A stretch of 64,000 nucleotides of DNA from an uncultured virus (IMG/VR IMGVR_UViG_3300003860_000003) (IMGVR_UViG_3300003860_000003:1-64000), one strand, 5' to 3'; numbered from the stretch's first letter, positions 10,889-53,004 are shown. The notes: a model not told the origin generated them from the letters alone. Program-made: numbers and translations.

Positions 10889-11590
10889 TTATATTTTTTT
10901 AGAATTCATATTATTTATTTCTTCCCAATTAATACCGGGAGATAAAAATGGTTCATGTACATGAGTAGATACGCCAGGTATTGGTTGATATAATCTTATT
11001 CCTTTTTCAAACATGTTTCTAAAAAATACTCTATCACGCCATCCATAAGTTTTAAAATTTGATATTATAATAGATTTTAATTCTTTTGATACAGCCCACG
11101 TTAAAGTAGTACTTTCAGCAGTTCTCCAATGTCTTCCATTATAAAAATAAATAGATTCTTTGTCTTTAGTAATGTCGTCAGTTCTAACATATCTGTCTAT
11201 ACAATCATATCCTGTTATTAAACCAAATTTTTTTACACCCATATATAAATGATCAATCGCTTCTGTAATATGCAAATAATCATCTTCGACAAAATATATG
11301 TCAGTATCTATATCATCAGAAAAATCAAGTTGATATTTTAATGAATTAGGTCCTGAATTTAATTTATTATAAATAATAGTATATCCACATTCTTCTATAA
11401 AATCTGATAAAATACATTTATCACCATCCATAAAAACAATAACATTTATATCGTTTTTATATTTACTACTCAAAATACTTTTATATAATGAATTAAAACA
11501 ATTTATTTTATTAAACCAAGATGGCCTTTCTTTACGTGTTAAAGGATATATTAATTCTTTATCACAGGCTCTATAAAGAATAGTTAGCAT
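10889..11590 (-). CDS. putative GT-A glycosyltransferase
   Basis: YFVEDDYLH, PIPGVSTH. Confidence 0.6.
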   Translation of the reverse strand: MLTILYRACDKELIYPLTRKERPSWFNKINCFNSLYKSILSSKYKNDINVIVFMDGDKCILSDFIEECGYTIIYNKLNSGPNSLKYQLDFSDDIDTDIYFVEDDYLHITEAIDHLYMGVKKFGLITGYDCIDRYVRTDDITKDKESIYFYNGRHWRTAESTTLTWAVSKELKSIIISNFKTYGWRDRVFFRNMFEKGIRLYQPIPGVSTHVHEPFLSPGINWEEINNMNSKKI

Positions 11591-11596
11591 ATTTTT

Positions 11597-12661
11597 TTAT
11601 TTACTAAATTGTTCTAAATCGCAAATCATCATTTTTCTAACTAATTCATGAAATGTTGTTGTTGGTTTCCACTTAAGTTTAGTTTTTGCTTTATAATAAT
11701 CTCCTACAAGATGTTCTACTTCAGCAGGCCTATAATATTTAGGATCAATTTCTATAAGTATTATATTATTATACATAAGTTTTTCATCTACGCCTTCTCC
11801 TATCCATTTAACTTTTCCACTAAATGGAGTATATTTAATAGCTTCATCAATAAATTCTTTTATCGTGTGAGTTTCTCCTGTTGCAATAACAAAGGTTTCT
11901 GGATTTTCTTGTTGAAGCATCATCCACATAGCCTCAACATAATCTGGTGCATATCCCCAATCTCTTTTAGAATAAAGATTTCCCATAGACAATGGCGGAA
12001 CAATTTGTTTATAATTTTGAACAACCTGATAACTATTTGAGAATTTAGATAATCCGATTGTTATTTTTCTTGTAACAAATGTTTCGCCTCGTCTTTCACT
12101 TTCATGATTAAAAAGTATGCCATTAATTGCAAATATTCCATAAGATTCTACATAATTTTCAAGAATCCAATATGAATATAATTTTGCTACTCCATATGGA
12201 CTTCTTGGGTGAAATCTTGTAGTTTCTTTTTGAGGAATTTCTGAGGCTTTTCCAAATAATTCTGATGTACATGCATTATATAATTTTGTTTTTGGAGAAT
12301 GTTTTCTTATAGATTCAAGAATATTTAATGTTCCAATTGCATCTACTTCTGCTGTATATCTTGGAAGATCAAAAGAAACTTTAACATGTGATTGCGCTGC
12401 TAAATGATAAATTTCAGTAGGCTGAAGATTTTTTATAAGATCATCAATTGCTAATGCATCAGTTACATCACCAAAATGTAATGTTAAATTTGAATTTGAA
12501 AAAATATGATCAATGCGTTGTGTATTAAAAGAAGATGCTCTTCTTATTATGCCATGCACAATATATCCCTTTGATAAAAGTAGTTCAGCCAAATAGGAAC
12601 CATCTTGCCCGTTGATACCAGTCACCAGGGCAATTTTTTTATTGCTTAATTTTATACTCAT
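11597..12661 (-). CDS. gmd: GDP-mannose 4,6-dehydratase
   Basis: TGINGQDGSYLAE, LAAQSHV, PRSPYGVAK, FNHESERRGETFVTRKI, RDWGYA. Confidence 0.97.
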   Translation of the reverse strand: MSIKLSNKKIALVTGINGQDGSYLAELLLSKGYIVHGIIRRASSFNTQRIDHIFSNSNLTLHFGDVTDALAIDDLIKNLQPTEIYHLAAQSHVKVSFDLPRYTAEVDAIGTLNILESIRKHSPKTKLYNACTSELFGKASEIPQKETTRFHPRSPYGVAKLYSYWILENYVESYGIFAINGILFNHESERRGETFVTRKITIGLSKFSNSYQVVQNYKQIVPPLSMGNLYSKRDWGYAPDYVEAMWMMLQQENPETFVIATGETHTIKEFIDEAIKYTPFSGKVKWIGEGVDEKLMYNNIILIEIDPKYYRPAEVEHLVGDYYKAKTKLKWKPTTTFHELVRKMMICDLEQFSK

Positions 12662-13400
12662 ACAACATATTTATTATCGATTTAAAAAATTCTATCCAAC
12701 TATCTCTATGAGAATTTGTTTTCATATGATCACTTTTACACAAAGTTACTAAGTTTTCTTCTATACTATTATGTTTATTATAATCTATATGATGCACAAC
12801 ATACCCAGATTTTCCACAAATAACACATTTATAATTATCTCTAATTCTTACTTTAGTTTTAAGTTCTTCATTAAATAGTGTATCATAAGGCTCATTACTT
12901 ATTCCTCCAAACCATGAACCATTTTTTTCTCTTCTAATTTTATCGCCCTGCCCAAACATAGGATTATTTTTATCTTTACAATCTCTATGGTTTTCACTTA
13001 TTTTTGCTAATGACTCGGGTTTATGTTTTTTTCCAAAGAAAGGATTTTTTAAACCACGTAATGATTCACTTATTTTTTTATTATGTTCTTTAGTATGTTT
13101 TTTACCTTTTTTATTTTCTTTAATTTGATTTAATTTTTCGTCTGCTATCTCTTTTCCAAATTTATTTATCCAAATATCATAATATGATCTTCCAAACATT
13201 GGATTTTTTTCTCCAATTAATCCTTTCTTTTTGTTTATTTCATCAAAATGTTTTTTTCCTTTATTTCTTTTTCCATTATTTCTTTTTGCACAAATAGAAC
13301 AACAAAACCTCTTTTTTGATTTTTTATTTATTATAAATTCATTACTGCATTCTTCGCAGAGTCTTTTTTCAAATATAATTTCTTGTTTTTTTCTTCCCAT
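12639..13400 (-). mobile_element. free-standing HNH endonuclease with NUMOD3-like repeats
   Basis: CxxC N-terminus, NPMFG/NPFFGKKH repeats, RDNYKCVICG..VHHIDY...NLVTLC..H; overlaps the gmd start. Confidence 0.88.
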
Positions 13401-13455
13401 AATATATAAAATCGTTTATTGTATATATTATTTTAATTACTGACATAATTGATAT

Positions 13456-13503
13456 TTAATGTGGGCCAGTTATCCCGGTGATAAGCGCTATTTTTTTATT
13501 CAT
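13456..13503 (-). pseudogene. orphaned original 5' end of gmd (MNKKIALITGITGPH*)
   Basis: manual translation; matches NKKIALVTGING of intact gmd with different codons. Confidence 0.85.
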
Positions 13504-13508
13504 TAAAA

Positions 13509-14288
13509 TTATTTTTTAAGTATTTTATATATACATTCATTATCATATTGATCTATATATGATTTTGTATATAAAGTTTTAAAATTTGTTTCTATTATAT
13601 CTTCAATATATTTATACGTTAATTTTAAAGGATGTCCAGAATCATAAATTCTTTCATAAAATTCATCAATATTTTTTTCTTTAATAAATTTATCATGAAA
13701 AATAAAAATACCATTATCACATAATATATTAGATATTTTTTTAAATATTTCATCAACATCAAAACAATGTTCTATTACATTTATCATTACAACTAATTGA
13801 TATTCTTTTGTTGTTATATAATTTTCTATAGCACAATTATATAAATTAACTTTTAACATATTTAAATAACCGTTTTTATATGCACAGGATGGAGAATGAT
13901 TGATATATTCGTTTATAAGCGGATCTAATAAATCAATATTTTTAATAGGCAGATGATATATTTTTGGAACTATTAATCGTAAATTAGTAAATGGCCCACA
14001 TCCTAATTCAATTATATTAAGATATGTGTTAGGAAGCATAAAATTTAATTCTTCATATCCACCAAAGTGTTTTTCATGCTCTTCATTATGATCAGTTTCC
14101 ATGTTTTTAGCTGCAGAATCACACCAAGTTTTTCGTTCATATGATTGCGCTTCATTCCAACGTTCAATATCTACTTTAGGAACACCTACATTTTTTATAA
14201 AATATTGTTTGTCATTATGTTCTTTTAATAATTTTTCAGCAGCTTCTCCTTCAAATATATTTACATCTTTATCTACATATATTTTCAT
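13509..14288 (-). CDS. class I SAM-dependent methyltransferase
   Basis: IELGCGP, LLDPL, NVIEH. Confidence 0.8.
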   Translation of the reverse strand: MKIYVDKDVNIFEGEAAEKLLKEHNDKQYFIKNVGVPKVDIERWNEAQSYERKTWCDSAAKNMETDHNEEHEKHFGGYEELNFMLPNTYLNIIELGCGPFTNLRLIVPKIYHLPIKNIDLLDPLINEYINHSPSCAYKNGYLNMLKVNLYNCAIENYITTKEYQLVVMINVIEHCFDVDEIFKKISNILCDNGIFIFHDKFIKEKNIDEFYERIYDSGHPLKLTYKYIEDIIETNFKTLYTKSYIDQYDNECIYKILKK

Positions 14289-14294
14289 TTTTAA

Positions 14295-15590
14295 TTATAT
14301 TATTTCAAATTTAGGACATGGTATAATAAAATGCCCACCCTTTTCTAAATATGATTTTTCTCTTTCTTTAAATTCATCTATAAAATGCCAAGGTAAAACG
14401 AGTAAATAATCTGGATGAATATTTCTCATGGTTTCTTCAGAATGAATAGGTATATTTGTACCTATTGTTTTTAGTCCAAATTTATAAGGGCTTCTTTCTG
14501 CAGCGCCATCTATCCACAAATTATCTAATCCAAACCACTGAAGAAGTGTATTACCTTTAGTTGATGCGCCATAAACCCATATACTTTTTCCTGATTCATG
14601 TGCTTTCATAACAAATTCGCAAGTCTGTTTTTTTAACTCTTGAATATCATTCCAAAAGTTTATATAGGATTCCTTATCTTTAAGATTTAATGTCTTCTCA
14701 TATTCCCTGAGTGATTGTAGACGCATTTGAGCTACATCTCTATATGGTGAAGATCCAAAAGATTCTGGCTTTGCTTTTTGTTTTTGAATATATGTTCTAA
14801 AGCTTCCGCCATTAACATCATTTAATATAACATCGACTACTTTAAATCCAATCTGCCTTAACATATATTCCATTGAATATAAAGAATGATAAAATACATG
14901 TTCATGACAAATATTATCAAATGCAAGTTGTTTAATCATTAATGGCATATAACTTTGTTGAATAACAAATAAACCATCATCTTCCATAATATCGTAAACA
15001 TCTTTAAGAAATAAAAGAGGATCTTCAAGATCATAAAACATAGCAATACATGTAACAATAGAAGCTTTAGTTAATTCTCCAGATATTATTGGTTCCCATT
15101 TTTCATAAACATCTTTTGAGAAAAAATCTTTAACTGCAATATCACAATTATTTTTTGCTTCAATTTGAAAACTTCCTTCTGCTGGATCTATTCCTATCCG
15201 TTCATATTTCTTATTATTGACAAATGATAATAATGTTCCATCATTTGATGCTATGTCTAAAAATACTAATTTATCATAAGGATCATCTACATCATTTTTT
15301 GCCTTTATTTTAGATAAATTCATACAAGAATTAGCAATATCAAAAAGTTCCATTTTCATAGTAGTATTAGTACCCGAACGATACCAATATTTGCCATACA
15401 TAAAATCTTTATCTGCATTTTCTTTTAACTGAAGGCACTGAGTATCTGGAGATAACATCAATGTTAAATCCCATTTTTTTGTTCCTCTATAGTCTCCTTC
15501 TGTTTTAATAAAATCTGATATATAAAGATCTCCTAACGAAAATAATTCTATAAGGGGAGAATTTGTTATTCTACAATTTGTATTTTTCAT
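14295..15590 (-). CDS. NDP-sugar C-methyltransferase (Methyltransf_13/14 type)
   Basis: YWYRSG, LDIASNDGTLL, FDNICHEH, VNGGS, YGASTKGNTLL, LVLPWHF. Confidence 0.9.
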   Translation of the reverse strand: MKNTNCRITNSPLIELFSLGDLYISDFIKTEGDYRGTKKWDLTLMLSPDTQCLQLKENADKDFMYGKYWYRSGTNTTMKMELFDIANSCMNLSKIKAKNDVDDPYDKLVFLDIASNDGTLLSFVNNKKYERIGIDPAEGSFQIEAKNNCDIAVKDFFSKDVYEKWEPIISGELTKASIVTCIAMFYDLEDPLLFLKDVYDIMEDDGLFVIQQSYMPLMIKQLAFDNICHEHVFYHSLYSMEYMLRQIGFKVVDVILNDVNGGSFRTYIQKQKAKPESFGSSPYRDVAQMRLQSLREYEKTLNLKDKESYINFWNDIQELKKQTCEFVMKAHESGKSIWVYGASTKGNTLLQWFGLDNLWIDGAAERSPYKFGLKTIGTNIPIHSEETMRNIHPDYLLVLPWHFIDEFKEREKSYLEKGGHFIIPCPKFEII

Positions 15591-15954
15591 ATTGTTTTTC
15601 TTCTATTATACTTGAGTTATATTGAAGATTGATTTGTCTTTTTACTTCTGATCGTTTATCATTCCAAAAATAAACTGATCGAGCCAATTCAATAAATTCA
15701 TCATTATGGAAATCTTTATTTTTTTCTTTTATTCGTATTTTATCTTCTATATTCCATATGTGACTGTTTATATTGTATAATTCTGTATGATATATTCCAT
15801 CAATATCAAAATTTTCAGCAATATCTTGAAGAATATCTAATTCTTTTTGAATATTTTCTAATTTAATTGTATCTTTAACATTTTCTTTTTTAATAAGCAA
15901 AATCGATATTTTATCATATAATTCTCCTAATGATACAGGTACAAGTATTTCCAT
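15571..15954 (-). CDS. DUF6165-like protein
   Basis: PVSLGELYDKISIL.IK, WNIED.IR, ELARSVY..ND.R. Confidence 0.7.
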   Translation of the reverse strand: MEILVPVSLGELYDKISILLIKKENVKDTIKLENIQKELDILQDIAENFDIDGIYHTELYNINSHIWNIEDKIRIKEKNKDFHNDEFIELARSVYFWNDKRSEVKRQINLQYNSSIIEEKQYEKYKL

Positions 15955-15970
15955 TTTATAGATTATTAAA

Positions 15971-16687
15971 TTATTTTAAAATTGTCCAATTTAATTTAAA
16001 TTGATGATTAGGATTTTCTCCCATATCTGTTCTTGCATAATGATGATAAAATAAATGATCATTTTTTATTTGCATAGTATCTATTAAACAGGAAAAAGAA
16101 CTATTCATTACATGAACTTCTTTAGCATGTTCTATTGTGTATATAAAATCAAATATTCCCACATCTTTATAATCAGTTGCTCTAATAATTTTAATTCCTT
16201 TTTCTATAGTTTCAGGTTTAAAATATCTTCCTCTTTCTCTATCGTCATGAACAAATAAATATTCTTCTTCATCTTTTAAATTAAGTCTATTATAATATGC
16301 ATTTTTCTCAGATTCAATATCTCTTTCAAAGTAAAATTTATTCCATTTATCTTCAAATGGAACATCAGCTGCTACATAGAATCCGTGATCAAATGATAAG
16401 AATGCCTTTTCTACATCTAATTTTCTAAACCATTCTGGAGTTATTCCTATAATTTTATAATTATTATTAGGATTTATTTGCATAAAAAATCTTACATCTG
16501 GATCATCTAATGGTAGCACTTTTAATTTTGTTAGATCTTTATACAAACGTACAACATTAGTATTATTTCGTGGTTTTGCAAATAAAAATACTTTATCGTA
16601 TCTTTCTGCATAGGTTCTTACTATTCCATTGCAAAGAAAATGATCGCCTAACCCAAGATGATGGTAAATGTATATTGAATTTTCCAT
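15971..16687 (-). CDS. hypothetical glycan-related protein, paralog 1 of 3
   Basis: HLGLGD, KW..FYFERD, YTIEHAKEVH shared with 25081 and 25822. Confidence 0.65.
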   Translation of the reverse strand: MENSIYIYHHLGLGDHFLCNGIVRTYAERYDKVFLFAKPRNNTNVVRLYKDLTKLKVLPLDDPDVRFFMQINPNNNYKIIGITPEWFRKLDVEKAFLSFDHGFYVAADVPFEDKWNKFYFERDIESEKNAYYNRLNLKDEEEYLFVHDDRERGRYFKPETIEKGIKIIRATDYKDVGIFDFIYTIEHAKEVHVMNSSFSCLIDTMQIKNDHLFYHHYARTDMGENPNHQFKLNWTILK

Positions 16688-30402: not shown

Positions 30403-31647
30403 TTAAAATAAGGGTTTAGTTTTTATTTGTTTTGCTTTTTCTAATCCTGAAATACCATCTATAAGATTTTGAAATATAAATTCACTATCACAATGATTTC
30501 GTGTAACTTCAAAACTACAATCTAAATATTGTTTATGAAGTTTCTTATCAGAATATATATTGTTAATTTTTTCTACTATTTCCTTTACATTTGTTAAATC
30601 TTTTTTAACAAAAAGTCCATAAGTATCAAGTTCTACAAATCTTTTATCAGTTTTCTTACCATTTTCATATATGTAACAATTTTCTGCCCAATGATAATCA
30701 AACATAGGAACTGTTCCTACTCCAATTATTTCACATTGAGCATATTCAAAATTATCTCCATATGCATCTGCATTAAGATGATAAAAATCTGCGCCTACTA
30801 ATGATTTGCTTAATGTTTCCATTCCATCTACATAATCATAAGGACCATATATATAAACATGTTCATAACTTCTATCAGCATCTAAAGCTGACATTCCAGT
30901 TTTAAAGAAATTTTTATCAACCTGAATGATATCATGTTTGGGAATTTTATTTTCGATATCATCATAAAAGATATTCAAAGCGCCAAGTGATCTTTCAACA
31001 CCTTTCATTTCAAGTAATATATCATTATCTTTAGCATAAGGAAGAAAAGCAAATAATCTGTCAGGTTGTTTAAATGTAGCATATCTACCAAGATATGTAA
31101 TTTTTTTAACATGATCTTCTTTACGATATTTTGCTAACTGAGAGAAATTAAATCCTACTTGAAGTTGAATAAATTTAGATCTAACAGCGCCTCCATATAC
31201 ATCTACAAGTTTATTATAGAAAGGAGATGTAATACTATGAGATACTATACCATCACAAAGACCACACATCTCAATAAAATTAGCATTTCTATGAATAGAA
31301 GCTATTTTATGATCATTTTGAAATATAATCTTTTTGGTTTTTATACCCTTGACCATTTTAAGAAATCCATCAATAGCCCATTCTGAATGTTTAATACTTG
31401 GAACACTATTGATAAACACATAATCAAATTTATTCAATACATCTGAAAAATTATCAATGTTATCTTTTGTAATCATAGATGGTTTTTGAGGAAATGTTTG
31501 AAATCCTCCACGTCCCCATTTTTTATCATCCATGATATAGATAATATGTTCAATTTGTTTTTTAGATAAAAATGTCGATAATTCAATAACATATCGTTGA
31601 ATTCCGGCGCCTTCTGCGCCTCTTCCCATTACTAAAGCTATTTTCAT
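30403..31647 (-). CDS. agt: DNA alpha-glucosyltransferase (T4 Agt-like)
   Basis: MGRGAEGAG, INSVP, QNDH...RN, SHS, GRYATFK, GVERS, EYAQCE..GTVPMF parallel T4 Agt motifs. Confidence 0.85.
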   Translation of the reverse strand: MKIALVMGRGAEGAGIQRYVIELSTFLSKKQIEHIIYIMDDKKWGRGGFQTFPQKPSMITKDNIDNFSDVLNKFDYVFINSVPSIKHSEWAIDGFLKMVKGIKTKKIIFQNDHKIASIHRNANFIEMCGLCDGIVSHSITSPFYNKLVDVYGGAVRSKFIQLQVGFNFSQLAKYRKEDHVKKITYLGRYATFKQPDRLFAFLPYAKDNDILLEMKGVERSLGALNIFYDDIENKIPKHDIIQVDKNFFKTGMSALDADRSYEHVYIYGPYDYVDGMETLSKSLVGADFYHLNADAYGDNFEYAQCEIIGVGTVPMFDYHWAENCYIYENGKKTDKRFVELDTYGLFVKKDLTNVKEIVEKINNIYSDKKLHKQYLDCSFEVTRNHCDSEFIFQNLIDGISGLEKAKQIKTKPLF

Positions 31648-34231: not shown

Positions 34232-34247
34232 AGTAGTAATATTTTAT

Positions 34248-34287
34248 TTTATATATTCAAAGCTTTTTGTACTAGAATATATATAAA
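34248..34287. promoter_or_regulatory. divergent pair of late-type promoters
   Basis: GAATATATAAA on minus (34248-34258) and GAATATATATAAA on plus (34275-34287). Confidence 0.65.
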
Positions 34288-39105: not shown

Positions 39106-40281
39106 ATGGAACAACAAATAGATTCGTCTAAAAACCAGTATCAACCAGCTCAGGAGATTATCGTTGATACTGAAGAACCCCCTCTTATCATCTCCGAAAA
39201 AACTCAATCTTTTAAAAATAGATTTTATTCAGATGTATCTGATACTAATTGGAATGATTGGCATTGGCAGATACGTAACAGTATAACTACATATGAAGAA
39301 TTGAGTCGTATATTTGGAGATTCAAATTATGAATTATCCAAGAATATAAATTTACCATTAAGAATTACTCCATATTATGCAAGTACAATCACTTCTCTTT
39401 CAGAAGGAATCGGAAAGTGCGTTATTCCAACCAATAACGAACTTCACGTAACTGAAAATGAGAAAAACGACTCGCTGAACGAAGAACATCAAAGTCCTGT
39501 GGAATGTATAGTTCATAGATATCCAGATCGTGTATTATTTCTAACCACGGACTTTTGTTCTTCAAATTGTCGATACTGTACAAGAAGTAGACTCATAAAT
39601 AGAGAACGAATTCCTAAGAAAGCGTGGGAAAAGGCGCTTCAGTATATTAGAGAACATACTGAGATACGAGATGTGTTATTATCTGGAGGAGATCCTTTAA
39701 CTATGAATGACGATAGTATAGAATATCTTCTTAAAGAAATTAAAGAAATAAAACACGTTGAGTTCTTAAGAATTGGAACTAAAGTTCCTGTTGTGTTACC
39801 TCAAAGAATTACGCCAGAGTTAACTAATATCTTAAAGAAATATCATCCTTTATTCATAAGTATTCATTTCTCTCATCCCGATGAAATAACTTCAGAAGTT
39901 AAACAAGCGTGTGAAAAGCTTGCGAATGCAGGAATTCCTTTAGGTTCTCAAACAGTATTACTCAAAGGCGTTAACGATGACCCACAAATTATGAAAAAGC
40001 TTATGAATAGTCTTCTTACAATTAGAGTTAGACCATATTATATATATGCATGCGATCTTGTTGCAGGTACAAGTCATTTTAGAACTACTATTAATAAAGG
40101 ACTTCAGATTATCTCAGCATTGAGAGGCTGGACGAGTGGTTACGCGTGTCCAACATTTATTGTAGATTCTCATTTAGGAAAAATTGAAGTCTGTGATAAC
40201 ATTATATCGCATAAAGATCATGTATATGAATTTAAAAGTTATACTGGAGAAATTTTAAGATATGAAGAAAATGTAGAATAA
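39106..40281 (+). CDS. kamA: KamA-family radical SAM lysine 2,3-aminomutase
   Basis: WNDWHWQ, LRITPYY, HRYPDRVL, CSSNCRYCTR, LSGGDPL, QTVLLKGVND, RPYY, HFRT, TSGYA. Confidence 0.92.
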   Translation: MEQQIDSSKNQYQPAQEIIVDTEEPPLIISEKTQSFKNRFYSDVSDTNWNDWHWQIRNSITTYEELSRIFGDSNYELSKNINLPLRITPYYASTITSLSEGIGKCVIPTNNELHVTENEKNDSLNEEHQSPVECIVHRYPDRVLFLTTDFCSSNCRYCTRSRLINRERIPKKAWEKALQYIREHTEIRDVLLSGGDPLTMNDDSIEYLLKEIKEIKHVEFLRIGTKVPVVLPQRITPELTNILKKYHPLFISIHFSHPDEITSEVKQACEKLANAGIPLGSQTVLLKGVNDDPQIMKKLMNSLLTIRVRPYYIYACDLVAGTSHFRTTINKGLQIISALRGWTSGYACPTFIVDSHLGKIEVCDNIISHKDHVYEFKSYTGEILRYEENVE

Positions 40282-41258
40282 TCTTTATTAGTAATTATTA
40301 AATAATTATACCCATTAAGAATAGTATATTTTTTCTTTGCTTCTATTTTTTCTTTATCTTTTTTTAAAAGATAAGAATTTTTTATTTCAACGATAAGATT
40401 TAAAGATGGAATGTAAAAATCTGGAAAATATAATCTGGATTCATTTTTATATTGATATTTTATTGTTGGGCCATTAACTATATCAGAATATACTGGGTAA
40501 AATTTTTCTAAAAAATCATATTCATAAGATGCTCTATAGTTTATAATAGTATTTTTATATTTTTTTGAATAACACGCGTTTTTTTGTTGTTTATCATGCA
40601 CTTCTTTATTCTGTGATGGATTTTTAACTCCATATTTATCTATACAAGTTTTTTCTATTTTATCTCTAACTTTTTTATTATTATTTGGATTTTCAACTCC
40701 ATATCTTTGCATACAAGTTTCTTTTATTTTATTTTTTACATCTATTCGTTGAAACGTATTTTTTACTCCGAAATTTTCTAAATTAGATATAATTATTTTT
40801 TCTTGAATTTTTAAAGACTGAAATGGATATTCTACTTCCAATTTTTTTAAATTATTTTGTTTTATTTCTTTTTGTATTTTTTCATTTTTCATAGGGCATT
40901 TATGCCCATATTTTTTTATCATCGTTTTATTTACTTTTTCTCTAATAGTTTTATCTTTAGTAGGAGAATTTACACCATATCTAAGTAATAAAGTTGCTTG
41001 AATTTTATGTGTTCTAAATTTTTTAGTGCAGTCAGATGAACAACAATTTTTATAACCTTTTCCTAATCCTATAAATGTTGTTTCTTTTTTACAAATTTTA
41101 CAAGTATTTTCATCATTTTCTTTTAGCCATTTATCATAATATGTTTTTTGAGAATAGTGATTAAGTCTTATATGTTTACTTAACCCATCGATTTTAACAA
41201 ATGTGCGTTGGCATTCTTCACATATAAATAAATTCTTTTCTTTTTTGAATTCTTTCAT
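40239..41258 (-). mobile_element. free-standing PD-(D/E)xK endonuclease with Zn finger and KYGV-type repeats
   Basis: C2H2 N-terminus, repeated (K/R)YGV.NP units, YFPDFYIP..NLIVEIK; antisense and overlapping the kamA 3' end. Confidence 0.82.
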
Positions 41259-41265
41259 TTTTTAT

Positions 41266-41276
41266 TTTATATATTC
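41266..41276 (-). promoter_or_regulatory. late-type promoter carried by the endonuclease element
   Basis: GAATATATAAA on minus strand just upstream of 41258. Confidence 0.6.
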
Positions 41277-42926: not shown

Positions 42927-42953
42927 TTATGAATATATAAAATAAACTATAAT

Positions 42954-44182: not shown

Positions 44183-45394
44183 ATGCGTTACATAGCACAT
44201 ATACCTCTTGCTGGAGGTTTTGCTCTTGGAAATATGAATATAATAGGAAGCCCTCCTCTGGCAATTACATCCTATACTCCTTTTAAAGCTAATGACGATT
44301 TATTGAGAAGATATCTTTTGAAAAAAGGACACGATGTGCCTTATATTCAATTAGATAATATGAATGATAACGAAGTTCATAAACTACAAGAATTTTCTAA
44401 AAATCTTGATTTTGTCACAGCAGTTCCACCTTGTTCTGGATTATCTCAAGCTGCACAACGTCCTAAGGGTTCAAGAGGAACTGCAGAACCAAATGAATGG
44501 ATGTATAAATCAGCAGTCTTTATCTTAGATTTTTTAAGTCCAACTATTTATGCATTTGAAAATGCTCCGGGCCTTTATACAGGCAGTGGAGAAGATGTAA
44601 GAAATAATCTTATTAAAATTGCTGAAGCAAATGATTATGCAGTTACATTTTATAAAACAAATACGATAAAGCACGGAATTCCCCAATTTCGTCCTCGTAC
44701 ATTTGCAATATTTCTAAAAGGTAAATACGCTCCTATATTACATTCATATAATAGACCGATGCCAAATATTTCTAAATATTTAAAAGATATACCTAAAAGA
44801 GCAAGTTATCAAGATAAATATATGAATGAAGATTCAGATGTAAATGAATATGAAATAACAAAATTCTTTAAAAAAATATATGGAACTGATTGGAAAAATG
44901 AAATTTATAAAACATATAAAACTCATTTAACTTCATACGATTATCTTAAACGACAGGGATTATTATATGATTTTAAAGATTTTCTTGAAACTTTACCGAA
45001 CGCGTCTAATATAGTTAAAAAGAATACTGCTCATGTTATTAAAAAGACTGAGATGGGTAAAAATTTTAGACTTGGATATCGTGTTCTTGGATTAGATAGA
45101 GATTATGTGTACGCGGTGATATCTGAGATGATGAATAGAACACTTCATCCTTCAGAGGATAGACTTATTAATATAAGAGAATATATGCACCTGATGGGAT
45201 TACCTCATGATTATGAACTTGAAAGTATAAAGGAATATCCTAAAATAACTCAAAATGTTCCAGTTTGCACATGTGAGGATGTAACTCGAGAAATAGTTGA
45301 AATAATAAAAGGTAATCGTACATTATCTACTCAATCTGTTTATATGCAGGATAATACAAAAGAATTAAATAATAAATCAAAATCTTTATTCTAA
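44183..45394 (+). CDS. C5 cytosine DNA methyltransferase-like protein
   Basis: PLAGG (variant motif I), PPCSGLS (IV), FENAP (VI), PQFRPR (VIII), R...RE...LMGLP (IX), QNVP (X). Confidence 0.85.
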   Translation: MRYIAHIPLAGGFALGNMNIIGSPPLAITSYTPFKANDDLLRRYLLKKGHDVPYIQLDNMNDNEVHKLQEFSKNLDFVTAVPPCSGLSQAAQRPKGSRGTAEPNEWMYKSAVFILDFLSPTIYAFENAPGLYTGSGEDVRNNLIKIAEANDYAVTFYKTNTIKHGIPQFRPRTFAIFLKGKYAPILHSYNRPMPNISKYLKDIPKRASYQDKYMNEDSDVNEYEITKFFKKIYGTDWKNEIYKTYKTHLTSYDYLKRQGLLYDFKDFLETLPNASNIVKKNTAHVIKKTEMGKNFRLGYRVLGLDRDYVYAVISEMMNRTLHPSEDRLINIREYMHLMGLPHDYELESIKEYPKITQNVPVCTCEDVTREIVEIIKGNRTLSTQSVYMQDNTKELNNKSKSLF

Positions 45395-46110: not shown

Positions 46111-46135
46111 AAATTATGAATATATAGAATAAAAC

Positions 46136-52900: not shown

Positions 52901-53004
52901 CGTTATGATTTTTTGATATTATCCTTACCGTGAAACTCTTAAATTCTCAATAATATATAAAATAAAATAAAACAATTTTATTGTTTAATTTAAAATTATT
53001 TATA

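Follow-up and report, generated by a model that had tools for sequence, protein, structure and literature searches.

A duplicated start of gmd flanks a free-standing HNH endonuclease gene in a T4-like jumbo phage

The gmd locus and its two starts

We analysed a stretch of 64,000 nucleotides (nt) from an uncultured virus (IMG/VR IMGVR_UViG_3300003860_000003:1-64000; hereafter the window, with coordinates counted from its first letter), in which an HNH endonuclease gene lies between two copies of the first codons of gmd, the gene for GDP-mannose 4,6-dehydratase. The full record is a metagenome assembly of 133 kb. The phage hosting this element carries a Gp23 capsid protein and a prohead protease and is a T4-like jumbo phage. 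In the 5' to 3' direction, and all on the minus strand, the locus comprises a methyltransferase gene, a short orphan open reading frame (ORF), a leader, the HNH gene and gmd. The methyltransferase gene (13509..14288; Pfam Methyltransf_23, E 2.8e-07) ends 5 nt ahead of the ATG of the orphan (13503..13456), whose 15 codons (MNKKIALITGITGPH, then a stop; ATG AAT AAA AAA ATA GCG CTT ATC ACC GGG ATA ACT GGC CCA CAT TAA) consist of the 13 codons with which gmd natively began, now displaced (MNKKIALITGITG), followed by PH. Homology to gmd breaks off after the GGC at 13465. The gmd gene itself (11597..12661; 354 amino acids, aa) is full length (Pfam GDP_Man_Dehyd, E 4.4e-128, profile positions 1-332 of 332) and begins MSIKLSNKKIALVTGINGQDGSYL, with the codons ATG AGT ATA AAA TTA AGC AAT AAA AAA ATT GCC CTG GTG ACT GGT ATC AAC GGG CAA GAT GGT from 12661 onward. 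Within this start, NKKIALVTGING (12608..12643) is a substitute copy of the displaced codons, and the N-terminal extension MSIKLS has its source in a 23-nt overlap between the 3' end of the HNH gene and the start of gmd (12639..12661, from the ORF coordinates). A first-pass annotation of the window had reported a gmd N-terminus duplicated across an HNH gene, with the orphan ATG 5 nt past the upstream stop; the minus-strand sequence, the ORFs and the Pfam matches confirm the duplication, and the ORF list (13503 and 13509) confirms the spacing.

The HNH gene (12639..13400) is intact and encodes a protein of 253 aa. NUMOD3 is found in this protein with 50.6 bits (Pfam cut-off 20.4) and reaches 109.9 bits in the homologous protein of locus L254; nine HNH families of PHROG match the window nuclease (E down to 5e-10), as does the HNH domain of IscB (E 5e-4). 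A comparison with the homolog of locus L083 revealed that the motif HHIDYNKHN...NLxTLCxxDH and two CxxC pairs are invariant, so that the protein combines the His/Asn/His and zinc-binding Cys-pair motif of HNH-type enzymes with a NUMOD DNA-binding region. By these sequence features it is the product of a free-standing HNH homing endonuclease gene, which is neither intron- nor intein-borne. An intein was considered as a separate candidate and rejected, as a stop codon closes the orphan, the HNH gene occupies a different frame (its ATG is 103 nt from that of the orphan) and no HINT domain was matched.

The working copy NKKIALVTGING and the orphan sequence NKKIALITGITG are identical at 10 of 12 residues, yet the third base is changed in all nine codons after NKK, exactly as the first-pass annotation had stated. 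Over the eight codons that precede Gln, 14/24 nt and 6/8 residues are identical and all eight third positions differ. In 2428 pairs of distinct HNH-free, low-GC gmd genes, compared over the same eight codons, a mean of 4.96/8 third positions differ, and 8/8 differ in 2.6% of pairs (P = 0.026). The two copies are thus as far apart as unrelated gmd alleles that were each maintained by selection on the protein, or slightly further, and are near saturated divergence, which indicates that the duplication is not recent. The earlier description of the substitute codons as recoded therefore stands with respect to the differences themselves, but recoding need not have been an active process. This divergence is local: the window gmd and its nearest HNH-free relative (L003) are 83% identical downstream of the motif and use the same codon at 172/285 sites with the same residue, whereas they do so at 0/6 such sites within the motif. 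A mosaic comparison of the same pair found the first 30 codons to be the least similar (nt identity 0.67-0.69, versus 0.72-0.92 elsewhere), with no sharp similarity boundary along the gene.

Both copies are also rich in codons that end in G or C, as first reported. The G+C content at third codon positions (GC3) over the eight codons before Gln is 0.62 in the orphan and 0.75 in the working copy, whereas the whole gmd gene has 0.127 and eight genes nearby have 0.08-0.17. The GC3-rich tract of gmd extends over codons 11-37 (12551..12631), and 6/8 of codons 11-18 end in G or C. The best 30-codon stretch of gmd contains 11 GC3 codons, which ties the top value among 31 window genes.

Filled, empty and scarred gmd loci

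The state of gmd before insertion is directly observed in L003, where the gene begins MNKVALITGITGQDG, is spelled in A/T-ending codons and has neither an HNH gene nor an orphan. The residues of the orphan match this start, which indicates that the orphan, and not the working copy, has the ancestral residues. The upstream gene of L003 is also that of L230 (the sole match among eight upstream stretches compared), and L230 is filled: its orphan MKKIALITGITG is fused to a truncated HNH gene, after which gmd has a new start, MKNNKIALVSGCTG. One site is therefore polymorphic for presence or absence of the insert, being empty in L003 and filled in the window and L230. A 405-kb contig behind L002/L082 is base-for-base identical to the window over 9 kb; it is not independent and was not counted as a second case. 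With regard to gene order, gmd in L003 (L003:1-2122) lies between homologs of window genes 15971-16687 and 15571-15954, which adjoin in the window; the window gmd is ~3 kb beyond this gene pair, so that the sugar-gene cluster has been reshuffled between the two.

A survey of the best 80 of 472 metagenome relatives and of 12 of 60 genome loci revealed HNH homologs directly before gmd in six further distinct loci (39-64% identity over tblastn best segments); the layout accounts for 6/80 of the metagenome loci kept and 3/10 viral loci. An orphan is present in 5/6 of these loci. In L083 (which equals L084, L085 and L175) the orphan is MNKKRKAVISGIAGQ, followed by LVVD and a stop, and the working copy is MKKRKAMITGING. 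The orphan of L172 (..IIISGITG, then LH and a stop) has no ATG, GTG or TTG start, that of L173 is MAKNKIALITGITG, then VH and a stop, and that of L176 (MSDKKRVLITGITGQ) is read in frame into the HNH gene. Only L174, where a divergently oriented gene lies upstream, has the HNH gene before gmd and no orphan. A further locus in a giant-virus bin, L077, keeps only an orphan scar (MKYALITGITG, then RQKKLKD and a stop) together with a 38-codon ORF, which amount to an insertion of ~215 nt relative to the empty loci L079, L067, L068 and L059.

These loci share their break point. In every orphan the homology to gmd extends as far as the second glycine codon of the loop that binds the nucleotide, or the codon after it: the break comes after GGN in the window, L172, L173, L230 and L077, and one codon later (Gln) in L083 and L176. 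The end of the HNH gene overlaps the start of gmd in L172, L173, L174, L176 and L230 as it does in the window. An alignment of the window, L172 and L173 shows a common junction and leader, although their upstream genes are unrelated. Since the HNH-linked gmd genes are as little as 44% identical between loci, the nuclease appears to follow the motif rather than one gene lineage.

Orphans were not found apart from the nuclease: 0/~145 HNH-free gmd loci have an orphan in the absence of an HNH gene or HNH remnant, no orphan occurs among relatives of the L083 gmd at 65-74% identity, and no HNH gene was seen upstream of gmd in L098, L102, L109 and L155. L155 had been a candidate insertion and was rejected, as its long tblastn match is a neighbouring dehydratase-family gene. 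Two other loci have features of their own. The gmd gene behind the HNH gene in L172 (L172:1017-3317) also has an intein (Intein_splicing, PT-HINT; residues ~180-569 of an ORF of 767 aa that extends up to the end of the contig), which places two kinds of selfish element in one gene. In L081 (1181-1270), a 23-codon ORF (MNIIVTGGCGFIGSTLRVERTYK, then a stop) directly upstream of gmd resembles an orphaned start from another short-chain dehydrogenase or epimerase gene.

The GC3-rich patch recurs as well. Measured as the GC3 of the eight target codons minus that of the gene remainder, the difference is +0.65 in the window, +0.52 in L172, +0.44 in L174, +0.38 in L173, +0.07 in L083 and +0.01 in L176, while HNH-free gmd genes (n=145) have a mean of -0.066, a 95th percentile of 0.19 and a 99th of 0.32. 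The patch is thus present in 4/6 HNH-linked genes at values above the 99th percentile of the 145 HNH-free genes; L230 is outside this count, with a patch GC3 of 0.38 on a contig that stops after 50 gmd codons. As the HNH gene has a GC3 of 0.13, the patch is not accounted for by import from a GC-rich donor. Nor is it accounted for by avoidance of recombination between the repeats, as L174 has the patch and no orphan; this speaks for immunity, and these comparisons suggest immunity to the linked nuclease as the simplest reading of the patch. The HNH-free gmd genes of L098 (447-560) and L109 (3001-3100) both read AFITGING; these may be resistant alleles without a nuclease, and L098 may have lost the insert or never had it.

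The same HNH clade occurs in the same layout at three genes other than gmd, in each case with the break at a conserved motif near the gene start. In L179 the target is an Amidase_3 gene, and its orphan MKIVIDPGH is fused in frame to the HNH gene; in L232 it is a radical-SAM-like gene whose two copies differ even by switches between serine and arginine codon families; and in L254, from a Methanolobus bin, it is a cytidylyltransferase gene. A downstream ORF was testable in 63/80 metagenome loci and, besides the gmd loci, L179 and L232, the best upstream matches in these 63 had scores of <=37 and were chance-like. The other six viral HNH loci (L086-L091) lie in unrelated contexts and have no gmd. 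Among annotated isolated phages, blastn with the locus returned only gmd bodies (60-80% identity; 70 records). A tblastn search of annotated phages with the HNH protein returned one metagenomic huge phage, L252 (LR756504.1, 636 kb; 33% identity), in which the HNH gene immediately precedes a DnaK-like gene (MNKKSTRIAGIDLGT...) and no orphan is present (L252:1501-2500), an ordinary intergenic placement.

The leader in the window (13401..13455, 55 nt) is AT-rich and is conserved in the alignment with L172 and L173 from the junction onward. It includes the motif ATATATACAATAAAC (13414..13428), 13 nt before the HNH ATG. The motif ATATATANAATAAAC (<=1 mismatch) has 6 matches in the window versus 0.59 expected (13414-13428, 34242-34256, 41260-41274, 42933-42947, 46120-46134 and 52953-52967), each 1-13 nt before an ORF start, and it is found in the HNH leaders of L172 and L173 too. 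The motif probably serves this phage as a promoter or initiation signal, and its recurrence before ORF starts suggests that the HNH gene of the window has its own phage-type signal. A scan for promoters and terminators gave 7 sigma-70 promoter-like sites versus 13.4 expected and no terminators. One ORF preceded by a motif of this type (40239-41258, minus strand) encodes a protein that matches DUF7487 (E 8.8e-41) and, weakly, the N-terminal part of a TnsA-like endonuclease, and may be another nuclease or mobile gene. Elsewhere in the window, genes for an AGT-like DNA alpha-glucosyltransferase (E 1.6e-11) and a C-5 cytosine methylase (30403-31647 and 44183-45394) suggest that the phage DNA is modified.

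Insertion at the nucleotide-binding loop and competing explanations

The anatomy of the locus, its empty counterpart, its recurrence, the common break point and the GC3 patch are all read directly. We propose that a free-standing homing endonuclease gene has inserted in gmd and displaced the native start, and that a substitute start keeps gmd whole. We consider this very probable; it is also what the first-pass annotation had suggested, namely an HNH invasion of the gmd 5' end that left the native start orphaned at its operon position and supplied a recoded one, and the empty site of L003 and the recurrence with the same break point support it. The insertion point would be 13 codons into gmd, where the second glycine codon of the nucleotide-binding loop (GxxGxxG) ends. 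In phages that lack the insert, the nuclease is predicted to recognise and cut the best-conserved part of gmd, the DNA coding for ...ALITGITGQDGS..., whereupon recombinational repair would copy in a cassette. This cassette would consist of the leader with its phage-type motif, the HNH gene, an overlapping new ATG and the recoded displaced codons running into gmd, while the recipient's own first 13 codons would stay upstream as the orphan. Because such a cassette brings both a new start and the displaced codons, gmd would remain whole without an intron or intein; the placement would be that of an intron-borne endonuclease, but the gene would be repaired through a new start and substitute codons. 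Neither copy should be a substrate, as the orphan would have lost the right half of the site and the working copy would have a changed left half (G/C-ending codons, I to V, T to N). The orphan probably also acts as a left homology arm, and in some relatives (L176, L179 and L230), where it is read in frame into the nuclease, it probably supplies the nuclease start codon.

A bolder extension of this proposal is possible, although we hold it tentatively. It would see an arms race played out in synonymous sites, in which AT mutation pressure restores the cuttable spelling and continuing attack keeps the G/C patch. The G/C-ending orphan would then be an older immune allele that was overcome by a shift in specificity, so that the locus would record two successive invasions; the cassette, by re-supplying the displaced start in cis, would represent a third in-gene lifestyle beside introns and inteins, and the orphan would be a working part of it (a homology arm, and the start codon in L176, L179 and L230). 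The repeated rounds of invasion suggested by the first-pass annotation are possible on this account, and the one fact behind them is the orphan GC3 of 0.62, a value matched by 1/53 HNH-free low-GC alleles (top list); in the other six loci the orphan GC3 is 0.12-0.50.

Several observations weigh against the insertion proposal or limit it. The Pfam HNH_3 match of the nuclease is only 18.9 bits, under the cut-off of 24.8, and the survey covered the best 80 of 472 metagenome relatives and 12 of 60 genome loci. Identity between loci is similar for the HNH proteins (44-67%) and for gmd (46-81%), with which a long joint residence and repeated loss remain compatible. At its very beginning the working copy is similar to the orphan of its own genome (NKKIAL in the window, KKRKA in L083), and this local likeness appears to fit exchange among close relatives better than one cassette with a fixed N-terminus that crosses lineages. 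The GC3 patch is absent from 2/6 HNH-linked loci (L083 and L176), and the HNH-free L098 carries one (0.62, versus 0.15 in the rest of the gene). The nucleotide identity of the patch is 17, 16 and 16/24 to HNH-linked alleles and 13/24 to L003, numbers that are too small to weigh. Finally, the two copies in L179 are nearly identical in nucleotides, which indicates that recoding is not obligatory.

The rival that deserves most attention, although we judge it unlikely, takes the orphan to be the scar of sloppy one-sided repair. The nuclease would normally sit intergenically before an immune gmd, as in L174, and each orphan would be the debris of a separate event and have no role: the right end of the break would have found homology in gmd, and the left end would have been attached, with no homology involved, to donor DNA from upstream of the HNH gene. 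L174 does show an orphan-free state, the upstream genes do differ between loci, and the L172 orphan lacks an ATG, GTG or TTG as decaying debris would; one-sided illegitimate repair is moreover documented for T4 intron homing in the available part of PMC2988022, which cites Parker 1999. However, independent illegitimate joins should hit different donor positions, whereas the window, L172 and L173 have one junction and one leader, and L230 begins alike. Once an orphan-bearing donor is present, its orphan gives homology, so that the scar and the cassette differ mainly on the first event. An assembly artefact, in which reads from two gmd alleles were joined into a chimera, is hardly credible. The record is indeed a metagenome assembly and its sole identical copy (the 405-kb contig) is not independent, but the same layout is found in unrelated assemblies from other samples and all three ORFs of the window are intact.

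Two further rivals concern the orphan itself. If a self-splicing group I intron were present, the orphan would be exon 1, 13465 would be spliced to 12607 and the second N-terminus would be incidental. The orphan does stop exactly at a point from which the remainder of gmd could follow in frame to give a canonical ITG-QDG junction, and short unannotated first exons beside phage endonuclease genes exist (ICP1 terminase; PMC10448857, in the part available). We nevertheless find splicing very improbable: an Rfam scan of 11500-14500 with E up to 10 gave only three chance snoRNA/pseudoknot matches below threshold, and with 55 non-coding nt 5' of the HNH ORF, none 3' of it and the HNH stop inside the new gmd start, there is no room for a catalytic core. 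The gmd that follows the HNH gene is already full length (Pfam 1-332 of 332) and needs no splicing to be complete. Despite heavy synonymous change, GxxGxxG and the hydrophobic strand are preserved in the second N-terminus of each of the seven distinct HNH-linked loci, which indicates that this N-terminus is translated. Moreover, L174 has no exon 1, the exon 1 of L172 has no start codon, and the orphans of L176, L179 and L230 continue into the HNH gene in the same frame. The remaining rival makes the orphan a gene or signal of its own (a leader peptide, an upstream ORF or a nuclease-bound operator that controls the HNH gene or gmd). The frame is intact from ATG to the break in 9/10 orphans (the exception is L172), and the orphans of the window, L083, L176 and L230 start in tight coupling with the upstream gene, as such a role would lead one to expect. 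This is improbable all the same, as none of the ~145 HNH-free gmd loci has an orphan in the absence of an HNH remnant, its state varies (free, start-less, fused or absent) and the residues past the break differ by locus (PH, LH, VH, LVVD and RQKKLKD).

Relation to known endonucleases and significance

Homing endonucleases are usually said to survive in genes only by way of introns or inteins, or to sit intergenically. The nearest described system to the insertion proposed here is the mORF gene hybrid of fungal mitochondria, known from atp6 of Allomyces macrogynus and from atp6, atp9, cox2 and nad3 of Glomus, in which the duplicated ends have 64-81% nt identity, versus 91-98% for the native end with a sister species (PMC3630166, in the part available). 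As in the window, these hybrids have an endonuclease ORF within a coding region and one gene end present twice; the copy joined to the gene has diverged in nucleotides and little in residues, the displaced native end lies beside the insert, the insert is absent from close relatives and the endonuclease is sometimes in phase with the host gene (PMC3630166). The window locus is, by analogy, its mirror image: the hybrids replace a C-terminus (core, foreign end, mORF, native end), whereas the N-terminus is replaced here (native start, HNH, new start, core), which obliges the new copy to come with a start codon of its own. The enzymes also differ, being LAGLIDADG or GIY-YIG in an organelle and NUMOD3-HNH in a tailed phage (PMC3630166). 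The window locus thus seems to work like a mORF hybrid and is not a member of those families.

Homing is established in T4-like phages, and the free-standing endonucleases SegF, SegG and MobE of T-even phages, which home without introns, cut at a distance of hundreds to thousands of bp from their own gene and sit intergenically (PMC2988022, in the part available). These are nearest to the window nuclease in host and enzyme class: the gene adjoins its presumed target gene in a T4-like phage, the linked allele differs at the presumed target, and the nuclease gene contains or overlaps signals of the host (PMC2988022). In contrast, the window nuclease gene lies inside coding sequence at the presumed target, as with intron-borne enzymes, and leaves a duplicated gene end, which the T-even enzymes, as the same source describes them, do not. 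Genes split by homing endonucleases, such as nrdA of Aeh1 by mobE and gene 60 of T4 by mobA (PMC2988022; PMC3045599, both in the parts available), likewise have a free-standing endonuclease within a coding region of a T4-like phage and keep their function, but they yield two polypeptides that reassemble, whereas nothing is split here and a short piece is re-supplied in cis (PMC2988022). One-sided repair at a T4 intron offers a route by which a cassette could enter with homology on one side only; it differs in being a laboratory observation on an intron and predicts no junction common to several genomes (PMC2988022). We found no published phage account of a duplicated gene end beside an endonuclease in literature outside subscription journals, including the available parts of PMC2248197, PMC10448857, PMC8351571 and PMC2988022.

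If the insertion proposal is correct, tailed phages would hold a further solution to endonuclease survival in genes, in which the nuclease settles at a conserved motif near the gene start together with a replacement start and the gene is never broken. The arrangement would explain short orphan ORFs and odd N-terminal extensions beside HNH genes, which could mislead gene callers and pangenome pipelines. The break point of an orphan would mark a likely cut site, here the DNA for the Rossmann loop of gmd, and such sites are of interest in the search for natural nucleases with long, predictable recognition sequences. For population genetics, the GC3-rich patch could serve as a read-out, from sequence alone, of nuclease pressure on a gene. 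At the level of the family, one HNH clade, four target genes, a common break point and a patch that may confer immunity make up a pattern that is worth pursuing.

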